DNA from: a virus
UHGV virus genome: UHGV-0306691
DNA: 11,944 bases
Direction: 5' to 3' (one strand)
Shown in pieces: positions 2,920 to 6,393 of this stretch. Every line of letters starts with the position of its first letter. Within the stretch, counting starts at the first letter, position 1. The notes under the pieces were generated by a model. That model ran no database searches and was not told the DNA's origin. It saw nothing but the letters and a program-made list of their open reading frames with translations. A program made the position numbers and the translations under genes.

Positions 2920-3056
2920 AGCTTTCTCCTATCTGTAAGTAGTAAAGTTGTTGATAACTTCGATTATACAACTACAACAACTTTTATCACAACTTTTAGA
3001 TGTTGGAAAGCTAAAACATAAAGTTGTAACCTCAATAAAAACGAGGGGGATAGGTT
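2920..3056. promoter_or_regulatory. OR-like divergent promoter/operator region between cro-like and cI-like genes
   Basis: Leftward promoter: perfect TATAAT on minus strand (complement of 2963-2968) with TTGTGA -35 at 18-nt spacing (complement of 2987-2992), about 37 nt upstream of the cro ATG. Repeated operator-like motifs: TAAAGTTGT at 2943-2951 and 3019-3027; AAGTTGTTGATAACTT (2945-2960, palindromic ends); ACAACTTTTAGATGTTG at 2989-3005. Confidence 0.55.
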
Positions 3057-3743
3057 GTGAAAACATTGGCAGATAGACTAAAAAGCGAAAGAGAAAAAGC
3101 AGGAATGAGTCAGGCGCAACTAGCTGAAAAAATTGGACTTTCACAACAATCCGTAGCAAAAATCGAGAATGGAGAAACTCAACAGCCTCGGAAAATTAAA
3201 GAGATTGCTAAAGTGTTAGGGGTTTCTCAAAAGTGGTTGCAATTGGGCATTGAGGATAACGCGTCTTTCCCAGACCTTGTTGTAAAGGAGGCTGAAAGTA
3301 CAGCATTAGATCCTGACATTTTTGCAAACATTCCTGTCCTGGATGTCGAGTTATCAGCGGGTAATGGATGTTTGGCTGAAATAGTTGAATCAACTGTAGA
3401 CTGGTTCCCGCTAAGAAGGATTGATTTAAGAAAAGCTGGTGTATGTGTCTCCAATGCAAAGATCGTAAAAATTTGGGGTAATAGTTTACTACCTGTACTT
3501 AACAATGGAGATTTTGTTGCTGTTGATGTTTCCCAAACAGTTCCTATTCGTGATGGGGATCTTTATGCTATACGTGATGGCGTATTACTTAGAGTTAAAA
3601 TATTGATCAATTTACCTGACGGTGGTCTGATTCTAAGAAGTTTCAATAAAGATGAGTATCCAGATGAAATACTCACCTTCGAAGATAGGCGTTCCAGAAT
3701 TCACGTTATAGGTAGAGTATTCTGGTCATCGCGCACTTGGTAA
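3057..3743 (+). CDS. cI: cI-like prophage repressor (N-terminal XRE-type HTH, C-terminal LexA/S24 peptidase-like autocleavage domain)
   Basis: 228 aa, GTG start after GAGGGGG. HTH segment MSQAQLAEKIGLSQQSVAKIENGE; C-terminal domain with G-N-S (GNSLLP) and downstream Lys (LRVKIL) in the arrangement of the S24 Ser/Lys dyad. Divergent from the cro-like gene. Confidence 0.85.
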   Translation: MKTLADRLKSEREKAGMSQAQLAEKIGLSQQSVAKIENGETQQPRKIKEIAKVLGVSQKWLQLGIEDNASFPDLVVKEAESTALDPDIFANIPVLDVELSAGNGCLAEIVESTVDWFPLRRIDLRKAGVCVSNAKIVKIWGNSLLPVLNNGDFVAVDVSQTVPIRDGDLYAIRDGVLLRVKILINLPDGGLILRSFNKDEYPDEILTFEDRRSRIHVIGRVFWSSRTW

Positions 3744-3840: not shown

Positions 3841-3929
3841 AGTATCCCTTGTGTAATTAAAAGCGCATCGTCCATACAACCTCCTTTTTTGATAATCCTT
3901 GCCCTCATTTCACGTCCGTCAAAACCACA

Positions 3930-3983
3930 TAAAGTTGTTGACAACAACCAAAACAACAACTAGATTACAACTTAAAGATGTTG
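3930..3983 (+). promoter_or_regulatory. OL/pL-like rightward promoter with operator motifs shared with OR
   Basis: TTGACA at 3938-3943, 17-nt spacer, TAGATT at 3961-3966. TAAAGTTGT (3930-3938) overlaps the -35; ACAACTTAAAGATGTTG (3967-3983) matches the OR copy at 2989-3005 in 16 of 17 positions. Placement downstream of cI, pointing into the early-left operon, mirrors lambda pL. Confidence 0.5.
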
Positions 3984-4076
3984 CAGTAACGAACAGGCAG
4001 GACGCCCACGAAGTAGCCGCCGGTGGCGTATGAATGACCGGATGATTCGTTAAATACTATGTGTAAGAGAGCGCAA

Positions 4077-4280
4077 ATGAACCGTTATTTCACATGCTCG
4101 TTTTGTGGCGCAAACGAGCTGCAGGCAAAAAAAATCATCGCCAAAGGCGGAAAAGATGAAGTTGCTATCTGCTCTGAGTGCGTAGTCTTGTGTGTCGGGG
4201 CATTAATCAATATCAGCACAACTATTCAGTTCACACCAAATGAGAATGCGCCTTTAGATGCGCGGAAATCTGGAGGTTAA
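4077..4280 (+). CDS. Small protein with ClpX-type C4 zinc-finger (ClpX N-terminal zinc-binding-domain-like), 67 aa
   Basis: CSFCG-x18-CSECVVLC matches the ClpX ZBD signature (E. coli ClpX: CSFCG...KLIAG...YICDECVDLC), including the K-[LI]-I-A-[GK] segment. ATG at 4077 preceded by AAGAGAG; first gene after the pL-like promoter. Confidence 0.6.
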   Translation: MNRYFTCSFCGANELQAKKIIAKGGKDEVAICSECVVLCVGALINISTTIQFTPNENAPLDARKSGG

Positions 4281-4369: not shown

Positions 4370-4546
4370 GTGGGAATAGTTAGAAATCAAGCAGATATAT
4401 TGAAAATCAGCTCTGAATTGCTTGGAGTTTTGAAAAGTGAGCTCACCGCACATGGCATCGAGCCCACTGACGAAAATTTAAGTTGGGTTTTGTCGATTAT
4501 TCAACAATCACTCAAGCCCAGCCTCAGCAAACTTTTTATCGAGTAG
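4370..4546 (+). CDS. Hypothetical small protein (58 aa, GTG start)
   Basis: GGGAGG SD 5 nt upstream of GTG 4370; the ATG at 4340 has no SD. Helical-looking product. 3' end overlaps a convergent minus-strand ORF by 39 nt. Confidence 0.3.
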   Translation: MGIVRNQADILKISSELLGVLKSELTAHGIEPTDENLSWVLSIIQQSLKPSLSKLFIE

Positions 4547-4699
4547 TGCTTCGAACTTATCGTAAAGCTTGCTTATGTCGTCTATCGGGTTTTCTGACGT
4601 ACTGTAATTTTTATCTGATGTCATGGCAGCAGTCTGATATGCAGTGTGAGTCTTAACCGATAGTTGGAATAAATAAAGAATTTTTTCTTCTTTGGTCAT
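4508..4699 (-). CDS. Hypothetical small protein (63 aa), antisense-oriented within the early-left region
   Basis: ATG (complement of 4697-4699) preceded by AAGGAAA SD; product MTKEEKILYLFQLSVKTHTAYQ... Convergent with and overlapping 4370..4546. No family recognised. Confidence 0.3.
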   Translation of the reverse strand: MTKEEKILYLFQLSVKTHTAYQTAAMTSDKNYSTSENPIDDISKLYDKFEALLDKKFAEAGLE

Positions 4700-4939
4700 A
4701 ACTATTTCCTTCTTGGCTATATGAAAACACCAAGATACCACCGAGCCTGAAGTGGTGAAAAGACAGGCACATAACAGCTAAGTATTTTCAACCAGAGAGA
4801 ATCCTTAGCGTTGTGGTGAATGCGCAGGCTGATGCGCGAAAGACATTGCAGCTATTGCGGAAAAGAGCTGTTCGGCGGGGCAATTAAACGCCCGTGAGAG
4901 TCTGAAATAACCGCAAGCCGGAGATCAGCACCGGTCACC

Positions 4940-5003
4940 ACAACAGCCACTGCTTTGGCGGTACCAGTTTGTACACTTGCTTCCGGCTGGTACCGCTCTT
5001 TTT
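4940..5003 (+). ncRNA. Putative DicF-like prophage sRNA ending in an intrinsic terminator
   Basis: TTTGGCGGTACCAGTTT (4954-4970) matches 16 of 17 positions of the DicF core as I recall it (UUUGGCGGUAUCAGUUU). 10-bp terminator stem (4958-4967 / 4987-4996, 19-nt loop) followed by UCUUUUU (4997-5003). Lies in a ~400-nt non-coding gap (4742-5140) inside the operon. 5' end is approximate; identification is from memory, not a search. Confidence 0.4.
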
Positions 5004-5092
5004 ACAAAACAGAGAAGAGCATCACCGGACGACGGGCTCATAACCCAATCCACCCGGGCGGCTGCCACCGCAGGTGTTCTTCTCTGTTTTGT
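5004..5092 (+). other. Long RNA hairpin (about 20 bp stem, 49-nt internal region) immediately 3' of the DicF-like terminator; candidate RNase III processing site
   Basis: 5004-5023 (ACAAAACAGAGAAGAGCATC) pairs with 5073-5092 (GGTGTTCTTCTCTGTTTTGT) with two G-U wobbles and no mismatches; verified base by base. Located upstream of the yfdP-like start at 5141. Confidence 0.45.
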
Positions 5093-5140
5093 GGAGAAAC
5101 CAACCGACCTTGCAGGGTCGATATGATGAGGAGCAGCAAA

Positions 5141-5503
5141 ATGGCTAGCGAACGCAGTACTGATGTGCAGGCATTTATCGGGGAGCTGGACGGCGGCGTA
5201 TTTGAAACCAAAATCGGCGCAGTTCTCAGTGAAGTCGCTTCCGGTGTGATGAACACGAAAACCAAAGGTAAGGTCTCGCTCAACCTGGAAATCGAACCGT
5301 TTGATGAGAACCGTGTGAAAATCAAACACAAACTCTCATATGTTCGCCCGACTAACCGCGGGAAAATTTCCGAAGAAGACACCACCGAAACGCCGATGTA
5401 TGTCAATCGCGGTGGTCGTCTGACTATTCTGCAGGAAGACCAGGGACAATTACTGACTCTTGCCGGTGAACCTGACGGAAAACTCCGCGCAGCAGGTAAT
5501 TAA
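5141..5503 (+). CDS. Hypothetical protein, YfdP-like (120 aa)
   Basis: ATG at 5141 preceded by GAGGAG; the ORF-track extension back to 4955 covers the structured RNA region and is unlikely to be coding. Length and position upstream of a 274-aa gene match K-12 KplE1 yfdP as I recall it. Confidence 0.5.
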   Translation: MASERSTDVQAFIGELDGGVFETKIGAVLSEVASGVMNTKTKGKVSLNLEIEPFDENRVKIKHKLSYVRPTNRGKISEEDTTETPMYVNRGGRLTILQEDQGQLLTLAGEPDGKLRAAGN

Positions 5504-5568: not shown

Positions 5569-6393
5569 ATGTCTCAGAACTTAGACGCAACCGCAATTAA
5601 TCAAATCCATGCCCTTATTTCTGCTCAGGGTGTTAATGAAATTATCAGTAAGATTGGTGCCGATGCAGTGGCATTGCCTGAGAATTTCCGCATTCATGAT
5701 CTGGAAAAATTTAATTTAAATCGCTTCCGTTTCCGTGGTGCGCTTTCCACTGCCAGCATCGATGACTTTACCCGTTATTCTAAAGATCTTGCAGATGAAG
5801 GCACCCGCTGCTTTATCGATGCTGATAATATGCGTGCCGTCAGTGTACTTAACCTGGGTACTATTGATGAACCAGGTCACGCAGATAACACCGCCACCCT
5901 CAAACTGAAAAAGACAGCACCGTTCTCTGCCCTGTTGTCTGTTAACGGCGAGCGTAACTCCCAGAAGTCACTGGCAGAATGGATTGAAGACTGGGCCGAC
6001 TACCTTGTGGGCTTTGATGCTAATGGTGACACCATTCAGGCAACCAAAGCGGCTGCGGCAGTCCGTAAAATCACAATTGAAGCAAACCAGACCGCTGATT
6101 TTGAAGACAATGACTTCAGCGGCAAACGCTCTCTGATGGAGTCTGTCGAAGCGAAAACCAAAGACATTATGCCAGTGGCATTTGAATTTAAATGCGTTCC
6201 GTTTGAAGGCCTGAAAGAACGTCCGTTTAAATTACGCCTCAGCATTCTCACTGGCGATCGTCCTGTACTGGTTCTGCGCATTATTCAGCTGGAAGCAGTG
6301 CAGGAGGAAATGGCTAACGAATTTCGTGATCTGCTTGTTGAGAAATTCAAAGACAGCAAAGTAGAAACCTTTATTGGTACTTTCACCGCCTGA
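5569..6393 (+). CDS. yfdQ: YfdQ-like protein (DUF2303 family), 274 aa
   Basis: Clean ORF with GAGGA SD 6 nt upstream. Length identical to K-12 YfdQ as I recall (274 aa) and followed by an HD-domain gene of YfdR length. Homology not verified. Confidence 0.55.

Follow-up and report, generated by a model that had tools for sequence, protein, structure and literature searches.

Introduction

The small RNA DicF of prophage Qin in Escherichia coli K-12 occurs as a 53-nucleotide (nt) form with an RNase E-generated 5' end and as a 190-nt form whose 5' end is RNase III-dependent, and no internal promoter was found for it (PMC10448788). Its sites on xylR and pykA use the DicF 5' end (PMC5069750), and published genetics places the pairing with ftsZ and manX near the 3' end. 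A second RNA, sRNA-17, is a 193-nt species mapped by 5' and 3' rapid amplification of cDNA ends (RACE) in the mEp460-like prophage of E. coli K1 RS218 (Front Microbiol 2020;11:574833, PMC7719688). Its level is higher in stationary phase, and ArcA represses it; a strain without it survived better in blood, and a plasmid copy in trans reversed the blood-survival and invasion phenotypes (PMC7719688). The authors of that work considered sRNA-17 novel, with no Rfam homologue, and cited DicF only as another oxygen-responsive RNA (PMC7719688); a later review likewise handles the two separately. Here we analyse an 11,944-nt stretch of the virus genome UHGV-0306691 (hereafter the window), in which an earlier note, made from the letters alone, had singled out positions 4940-5092 as a DicF-like core whose 5' region apparently differs, together with a terminator and an adjacent duplex. 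We consider it quite probable that 4940-5003 is the 3' end of sRNA-17, lying in the untranslated leader of the early-left operon, and that it combines a scaffold homologous to that of dicF with swapped target segments.

Results

sRNA-17 in the window

The window spans the immunity and early part of an SfV/mEp460-type lambdoid prophage, and its sequence matches mEp460, Stx2c and SfV-type phages. In a 99.8% identical E. coli locus, RefSeq gives yfdP at 5141-5503, followed by yfdQ and yfdR, and has no feature in 4700-5140, the gap into which everything flagged by the earlier note falls. Classical dicF copies, 100% identical over 106 nt (H151-H155), are also without annotated feature in several RefSeq genomes, so that a missing non-coding RNA annotation says nothing about the presence of a small RNA.

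The identity of the RNA rests on the published primer table (Table S2 of PMC7719688), mapped to the window. The primers for full-length sRNA-17 correspond exactly to 4809-4841 and 4971-5002, and those for RACE, Northern blotting and deletion are also exact, at 4937-4955, 4837-4857 and 4871-4920. The primers used for 5' RACE, like the Northern probe, run antisense to the + strand; those used for 3' RACE run in the sense direction. Because the primers map exactly and in consistent orientation, sRNA-17 is the + strand RNA 4809-5002, and the flagged terminator is its 3' end. The parts of this RNA are as follows.

4809..5002, + strand: sRNA-17, to which the primers of PMC7719688 Table S2 map exactly
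4810..4818, + strand: closing helix, 5' strand (GUUGUGGUG), paired with 4937-4945 in the minimum-free-energy (MFE) and centroid folds
4937..4945, + strand: closing helix, 3' strand (CACCACAAC), from folding and covariation
4946..4956, + strand: predicted single-stranded linker (AGCCACUGCUU), a candidate seed, mostly unpaired in folds
4954..4970, + strand: DicF-shared core (TTTGGCGGTACCAGTTT), U-rich lead plus terminator 5' arm, equivalent to DicF nt 13-29
4957..5003, + strand: Rho-independent terminator, stem 4957-4969/4985-4997 with a 15-nt loop and U-tract 4999-5003

A core and terminator in common with DicF

For comparison we used the genuine K-12 dicF gene (NC_000913.3 1649382-1649434). 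Its nt 13-29 (TTTGGCGGTATCAGTTT) have 16 of 17 bases in common with 4954-4970, so that the central core typical of DicF, UUUGGCGGUAUCAGUUU as the 5' arm of a terminator, is present in the window where the earlier note had placed it. TTTGGCGGTACCAGTTT occurs once in the window, and about 0.01 chance matches are expected with up to two mismatches. Upstream of the core the window reads CACCACAACAGCCACTGC, with no match to the DicF 5' end UUUCUGGUGACG, in agreement with the dissimilar 5' region noticed before.

The terminator stem pairs G4957-U4969 with G4985-U4997 over 13 base pairs (bp). Ten of these are Watson-Crick pairs (4958-4967 with 4987-4996), which accounts for the 10-bp stem previously described, and UCUUUUU follows directly at 4997-5003. 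The fold has an energy of -21.2 kcal/mol (z = -4.5). As in DicF, a U-tailed Rho-independent terminator forms the 3' end; its function is supported by the 3' RACE end of the published sRNA-17, which lies within the U-tract. As for the linker, MFE structures show a weak 3-bp hairpin over 4946-4955, and its GC|UUU (4952-4956) agrees with the RNase E motif RN|WUU. An RNase E-type cut at this site could produce a short form of the RNA.

Sister alleles link the window to the dicF locus

A scan of IMG/VR with TTTGGCGGTAYCAGTTT retrieved more than 120 loci of two main allele types. Type A is classical dicF and is followed by dicB (62 aa), whereas type B has the loop, 3' arm and downstream sequence of the window and is followed by yfdP; the two types are not alignable past the U-tract. 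In about half of the type B loci, the upstream flank (GTTGACCATACGCCTGAGTGACAACCCCACCACAACAGCCACTGC) aligns with the K-12 sequence upstream of dicF, and these bridging alleles reach 85% identity (118/139) over about 140 nt. A third allele (L032) is 86% identical to the K-12 upstream flank. Type B differs from K-12 by a single 19-nt gap covering TTATCAATTTTCTGGTGACG, a stretch that coincides exactly with the RNase E site and the 5' seed of mature DicF; the altered 5' region is also seen in aligned sister alleles. The window's own upstream 130 nt form a third, unrelated module.

The window and the dicF locus both lie in the early-left operon, downstream of the repressor/operator region. The context and homologous leader characteristic of DicF are thus found here, the 85% leader homology being that of sister alleles and the module of the window itself having been replaced. 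Common descent of the locus with the dicF locus of prophage Qin is established by the bridging alleles, together with the identical place in the operon and an architecture common to both. Our confidence is high for this homology, for the identity with sRNA-17 and for the structures described below.

We surveyed about 60 distinct Enterobacterales alleles at this position. All have a strong hairpin and a U-tract, with stems that differ or covary, and a conserved (U)UUGGCGG lead, while loops and linkers vary freely. The CCGUGA loop of K-12 DicF is also found in some Enterobacter, Kosakonia and Leclercia alleles. This position acts as a cassette site, and DicF and sRNA-17 are two of the terminator-ended small RNAs that occupy it. 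In ST64B of Salmonella (L127 1420-1506), a different terminator-ended cassette, GUCGGCGUC...GACGCCGAC, stands between CCACAAC and the conserved hairpin. LLS and Eeyore (L130/L131, about 1470-1510) and Kp4866-6 (L128 1440-1515) have other terminator-ended cassettes, with GCCCAUCGCAUCGGUGGGC in LLS, and some cassettes of other phages have long loops with AGGAGG-like runs. The cassettes of ST64B, LLS, Eeyore and Kp4866-6 are candidates for undescribed small RNAs.

The segment 4937-5140 is present in 2178 of 5426 complete E. coli genomes (about 40%) and classical dicF in 3968 of the same 5426 (73%). The window allele also occurs in the Stx2a and Stx2c phages of O157.

The target-pairing segments differ from those of DicF

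The DicF 5' segment UUUCUGGUGAC, which follows the RNase E-generated 5' end and pairs with xylR and pykA, is absent from the window. In the window RNA, other sequences take the place of the loop and 3' arm, where DicF has its residues for pairing with ftsZ and manX. Pairing was evaluated with an accessibility-corrected duplex window scan; plain RNAduplex-style folding was dropped, as it gave unrealistically long duplexes. DicF nt 26-53 (loop and 3' arm) pair with ftsZ from -28 to -1, with a total energy of -8.9 and a hybrid energy of -26.5 kcal/mol. For the window RNA the best pairing with ftsZ reaches -4.1 kcal/mol at -86 to -75, outside the translation initiation region.

Since the segments through which DicF pairs, at its 5' end, loop and 3' arm, all differ, the 17 shared nt, that is, the U-rich lead and terminator 5' arm, are scaffold, not seed. 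The scaffold that is kept comprises the U-rich lead, the GGCGG 5' arm of the terminator and the U-tail. The earlier likening of this segment to the 3' half of DicF hence stands for the core and the terminator architecture, while the loop and 3' arm do not conform to it. With the 5' seed lost and the loop and 3' arm changed, the predicted targets are different, as had been suggested, and the RNA is best described as DicF-related with different predicted targets; it should not be filed as DicF.

A covarying helix at the 5' end of the RNA

The 190-nt DicF starts just before GTTGTGG (about 3246-3251 of the K-12 locus L003), and sRNA-17 starts at 4809, one base before GTTGTGG. The partner of this heptamer is CCACAAC, located immediately ahead of the core. 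The closing helix covaries across loci (GTTGTGACG/TGTCACAAC, GTTGTGGCG/CGCCGCAAC, GTTGTGGTT/AACCACAAC) and surrounds at least three unrelated, interchangeable modules of 60-190 nt. Because the 190-nt DicF has its RNase III-dependent 5' end at the equivalent place, the end at 4809 probably arises by processing and not by transcription initiation, and by the same analogy we infer that sRNA-17 corresponds to the 190-nt DicF species.

In Phytobacter prophages (L225 2210-2288; L254 1186-1264), ARAGORN calls the enclosed module tRNA-Ile(aat), with the closing helix as its acceptor stem. In the window, ARAGORN calls no tRNA and Rfam gives no tRNA match; the tRNA-like traits there are limited to the acceptor-like helix and a 13-nt identity to the initiator tRNA anticodon arm, described below. 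The analogy suggests tRNA-like processing at the 5' ends of sRNA-17 and long DicF. In relatives, a boxA-like sequence, AGTGCTCT(C/T)..CGTTGTGG or AGTGCTCT(C/T)..C, stands directly 5' of the closing helix, and a weak version of it is present in the 4798-4818 region of the window.

A conserved three-way junction follows the terminator

Directly after the U-tract lies a second structured element.

5004..5092, + strand: three-way-junction leader element, with closing stem 5004-5023/5073-5092, branch 1 at 5025-5057 and branch 2 at 5058-5071
5031..5051, + strand: invariant 21-mer GACGGGCUCAUAACCCAAUCC in branch 1, of the general form GACGGGCUCAU(A/U)(A/C)CCCAAUCC

The closing stem is the 20-bp duplex with two G-U pairs that the earlier note had described, and it can be extended to 25 bp into the U-tract. 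The hairpin 4999-5097 has a folding energy of -49 kcal/mol (z = -8.2), and none of 200 shuffles was as stable. We aligned 33 distinct sequences of the junction (alignment A2) from E. coli, Shigella, Salmonella, Klebsiella, Citrobacter, Enterobacter, Kosakonia, Phytobacter, Mixta, Erwinia and others. In this alignment 93% of cells are paired, versus 36-50% with the partners slid, and 12 pairs are changed on both sides; the observed values are attained by 0 of 500 shuffles. The three-way junction is a genuine conserved structure, supported by covariation.

An RNase III site calls for about 20 bp or more of near-continuous duplex, a length found in 5004-5023/5073-5092. In K-12, a 21-bp duplex starts 8 nt past the DicF U-tract and closes the whole dicF-dicB spacer. 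The 3' ends of DicF arise by termination or RNase III cleavage, in 53-nt and 72-nt forms (PMC5069750), as the earlier note had stated, and the reported 72-nt RNase III 3' end lies in the 5' arm of the K-12 duplex. The stem of the window begins right at the U-tract, in the same position as the K-12 duplex and with an unrelated sequence. By analogy, this 20-bp stem is likely an RNase III substrate. The idea of an RNase III stem, previously advanced from its length, is strengthened by its location; it was too narrow in that the duplex also closes a conserved three-way junction.

An invariant 21-mer that resembles the initiator tRNA

Within the 21-mer, 5034-5046 (GGGCUCAUAACCC) are identical to the anticodon stem-loop of E. 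coli initiator tRNA (metZ nt 30-42, GGGCTCATAACCC), a match that comprises three G-C pairs and the CUCAUAA loop. In a genome-collection scan, the 21-mer was found in 41 species representatives, mostly in Enterobacterales prophages, whose copies stand in early leaders, and also in phage regions of metagenome-assembled genomes (MAGs) of Planctomycetes, Acidobacteria, Deltaproteobacteria and others. The flanks of the MAG copies are unrelated, yet a helix forms in the same register, for example GCGATCGC/GCGATCGC, CTCCAATC/GATTGGAG and CCCGGCGGGT/GCCCGCCGGG. Over 22 independent contexts, 83.6% of cells of this closing stem are paired versus 27-54% when slid, and one pair shows six pair types; the 21-mer itself is unchanged while its closing stem covaries. 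Loci with the 21-mer include L227, L232, L238, L240, L257, L260, L261, L241, L134 and L144.

Genes found beside the MAG copies encode a major capsid protein, head-tail connector, baseplate hub and spike, lambda-type portal and holin/endolysin. A tie between the 21-mer and yfdP/yfdQ was considered and rejected, as the MAG loci with the 21-mer encode neither. A covariance model (R1) finds one 21-mer hairpin per locus; run on 763 kb of related loci, it gave no copies beyond the exact matches and none in classical dicF-dicB loci. The 21-mer matches no Rfam family, and the searchable literature yielded no paper with the motif or with a phage mimic of the initiator tRNA anticodon.

Going by its sequence, branch 1 (5025-5057) might be an initiator-tRNA anticodon-arm mimic, that is, a phage RNA motif spread across phyla, a proposal that we make tentatively and hold to be rather doubtful. 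Engagement of a universal tRNA-fMet partner is, as a hypothesis, the reading that accounts best for the cross-phylum identity; candidates are methionyl-tRNA synthetase, PIN/VapC toxins, or the P site of the 30S subunit along with IF3. If the partner were PIN/VapC toxins that cut tRNA-fMet, the hairpin would act as a decoy. Should the hairpin be functional, it would represent a new class of phage RNA element.

The surrounding early region

The other features of the immunity region and the leader are listed here.

3057-3743, + strand: cI-like repressor gene
2927-3030 (right operator, OR) and 3927-3985 (left operator, OL): operator repeats D3, D4, D5 and D11, common to both
3938..3966, + strand: early-left, PL-like promoter (TTGACA, 17-nt spacer, TAGATT) within the operator repeats, from the promoter scan
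4737..4768, + strand: conserved hairpin element of the leader (ACCACCGAGCCTGAAGTGGTGAAAAGACAGGC / ACCACCGAGCCUGAAGUGGUGAAAAGACAGGC), left edge of the region common to many phages and a mosaic junction
5103..5122, + strand: small hairpin just ahead of the yfdP ribosome-binding site, in the fold of 4900-5145
5141..5503, + strand: yfdP, first gene past the leader, from the RefSeq annotation of the identical locus
5569-6393: yfdQ, after yfdP and before yfdR

The PL-like promoter is the likely source of transcripts entering the leader. The 4737-4768 element is also present in SfV, L141, L224, L226, L233, L237 and L126, the last of which has operator-like repeats and a promoter-like site directly upstream of it. 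In the window, a gene on the - strand (4508-4699) and a small zinc-finger open reading frame (ORF; 4077-4280) intervene between PL and this element and look like a moron insertion. The ORF 4077-4280, the first after PL and annotated as ClpX-type zinc finger, was considered as an N-like antiterminator and set aside, its N-terminus not being arginine-rich; no N homologue was identified. The 5103-5122 inverted repeat is also reported by the terminator scan, on the - strand.

Two copies of the motif GAATGCGC..N..GATGCGCG(G/A)AA are present in the window, at 4244-4267 and 4818-4841. The related GTGGTGAATGCGGCTGAGCGCACGCGG lies downstream of dicF in K-12 (L003 3457-3490) and upstream of the DicF-like terminator in SfV and ST64B. 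Such motifs flank the dicF-type RNA on different sides, so that shuffling has placed a small hairpin module of the GAATGCGC/GTGGTGAATGCGGCTGAGCGCACGCGG type now on one side of the small RNA, now on the other; this module may be boxB-like.

In K-12 CPS-53 (L125 5248-5604), the entire leader upstream of yfdP is missing, including the DicF-like terminator and the hairpin, and GATTTTGACGGGTCA-like tandem repeats beside yfdO stand in its place. K-12 transcriptome data are therefore unusable for this element. Finally, in a prophage with the window-type allele (L025 9473-9661), an isrK-like RNA (58.9 bits, Rfam) is followed at once by a C4 antisense RNA (80.7 bits).

Discussion

We propose that transcripts from upstream would mostly end at the U-tract 4999-5003, releasing a small RNA whose 5' end at 4809, at the foot of the conserved closing helix, would be made by processing. 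Transcripts that read through would fold into the three-way junction 5004-5092, and an RNase III cut in its 20-bp stem would set the yfdP message free of the small RNA, as happens at the analogous duplex of K-12. Our confidence in this processing scheme is moderate, and in any specific trans function of sRNA-17 it is low.

Several observations weigh against our reading of 4940-5003 as a dicF-related sRNA-17 with swapped target segments. Taken by itself, the window aligns with K-12 dicF over 17 nt only, the rest being structural analogy, and the argument for homology depends on bridging alleles from other genomes. The Rfam model of DicF (RF00039), which scores 76.7 bits on K-12 dicF for a gathering threshold of 48 bits, gives no match at that threshold on the window and none at E<=10 on 4600-5300. 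Upstream of 4809, the window is of the SfV type (GAGAATCCTTAGC), whereas RS218/mEp460 has TAAGTGCTCTCAGC, and the primer sequences of the ArcA-bound promoter fragment of PMC7719688 are absent from it; no GTTA repeats are found in 4600-4830, and a promoter scan detects no sigma-70-like promoter between 4700 and 4809. With neither that fragment nor such a promoter upstream, we infer the source of transcription in this window and strain. The action in trans is likewise a proposal, and the cleavages by RNase III, RNase E and an RNase P-like activity are put forward by analogy. Lastly, the biggest effect of the sRNA-17 deletion is on the adjacent yfdP and yfdR, so that much of the biology could be in cis.

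This last point bears on a rival explanation, in which the element serves the early-left operon chiefly in cis, as a terminator or attenuator comparable to tL1 after nutL. It would silence yfdP-yfdQ-yfdR in lysogens and release the RNA as a by-product that regulates nothing itself. When a cassette took the place of 4835-4952, yfdP rose 95-fold and yfdR went from 0 to 8 reads, by far the biggest transcriptome changes (PMC7719688 Table 1), which points to a strong cis effect on the genes just downstream. The boxA-like sequence upstream in relatives, as expected of an antitermination site before a terminator, and the conservation of the terminator scaffold in all alleles while potential seed regions vary freely fit the same idea. 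However, the plasmid copy acted in trans on the blood-survival and invasion phenotypes (PMC7719688), DicF from the homologous position in K-12 is a proven trans-acting, Hfq-dependent regulator, and roles in cis and in trans are compatible. A primarily cis-acting element is an alternative to be taken seriously, if one that we find unlikely. That the RNA is instead a functional DicF orthologue, blocking cell division by pairing with ftsZ mRNA, is very improbable. The 16/17 core, the same terminator architecture and the same operon position would suit such a function, but the residues that pair with ftsZ, both predicted and mutationally shown, lie in the loop and 3' arm that are replaced here, no pairing with the initiation region is predicted, and RF00039 fails to match. 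It also fails in nine relatives of the window allele, and the Rfam matches that do appear on 4600-5300 at E<=10 (hairpin ribozyme, 17.5 bits; rydB, 13.7; sR32, 10.3) were rejected as weak chance matches. The DicF-family variant with an altered 5' region proposed in the earlier note is thereby upheld as a true relative, by way of the bridging alleles, and not as a member that the family model recognises.

Two further explanations, a coding region and chance similarity, had been named in the earlier note as ways in which its proposal might fall, and the data speak against both. The region could encode a protein, either mEp460_036 on the - strand (window 4925-5068) or an N-terminal extension of yfdP: ORFs are present at 4925-5329 (-), 4955-5503 (+) and 4977-5126 (+), and some GenBank records give hypothetical proteins. 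Nevertheless, RefSeq leaves 4700-5140 empty, alleles differ by whole-segment swaps and by indels of lengths not divisible by three, yet keep their base-pairing, and the 21-mer is invariant even at would-be third codon positions, which makes a coding role hardly credible. As for mEp460_036 itself (JQ182728.1), it is a 47-aa hypothetical protein opposite the terminator and hairpin, with a start codon that is the complement of the invariant CAU loop, and it most probably does not represent a real gene. The remaining explanation, that a short GC-rich terminator arm resembles DicF by chance, would account for why alignable similarity to K-12 within the window amounts to 17 nt. It is at odds with the number of matches expected by chance, with the 85% flank identity of the bridging alleles, with the same operon position and with the analogous downstream duplex, and we give it practically no weight.

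A dicF-related sRNA-17 with its own target segments would join two literatures that have so far been unconnected, in that the virulence-linked sRNA-17 of meningitis E. coli would be a sister of DicF in the same prophage operon slot. The DicF relationship, the terminator and the downstream structured element were all unrecognised in PMC7719688. We found no report of the link in the searchable literature, and the relationship appears previously unreported. As the O157 Stx2a and Stx2c phages carry the allele, counts of 'four dicF copies' in enterohaemorrhagic E. coli would miss a further DicF-related RNA. More generally, the locus illustrates how prophages may diversify small RNAs, with the terminator scaffold and flanks fixed and the seed-bearing 5' segment, the loop and the 130-nt module swapped as cassettes. 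Our reading predicts no repression of ftsZ, a long form and possibly a short form of the RNA, and RNase III cleavage in 5004-5092. It also offers a simple cis explanation for the induction of yfdP in the published deletion mutant.

Comparison with known systems

Small RNAs can be released from the 3' trailers of tRNA genes, as exemplified by 3'ETS-leuZ. The arrangement here is similar in that a 7-9-bp helix, in Phytobacter the acceptor stem of a predicted tRNA, immediately precedes the DicF-like segment, and this segment ends at the operon's terminator; the arrangement is dissimilar in that the helix-closed modules of the window and of K-12 are not recognisable as tRNAs. A second parallel is the N-leader of lambda, which reportedly consists of nutL, an RNase III-sensitive hairpin and the N ribosome-binding site, as described by the Court laboratory in EMBO J in 2002. 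In both leaders a long RNase III-type hairpin directly precedes the site at which ribosomes bind the first early-left gene, and in relatives of the window a boxA-like sequence stands ahead of the hairpin. Unlike that of lambda, the hairpin of the window is a three-way junction with an invariant apical motif, and a strong terminator and small-RNA cassette lies between the boxA-like site and the hairpin.

With sRNA-17 of RS218, the window has in common the sequence 4809-5002, the mEp460-like prophage type, yfdP downstream and the 3' end at the terminator. Compared with DicF of prophage Qin (RF00039), it lacks the 19 nt with the 5' seed, its loop and 3' arm are changed and without ftsZ complementarity, its upstream 130-nt module is replaced, it has no Rfam match and it carries yfdP in place of dicB. 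Both, however, are placed in the early-left leader past the immunity region and have the core UUUGGCGGUAYCAGUUU and a 5-U tail; in both, the long precursor (about 190 nt) begins at the same conserved helix, and a duplex of at least 20 bp lies close after the U-tract.

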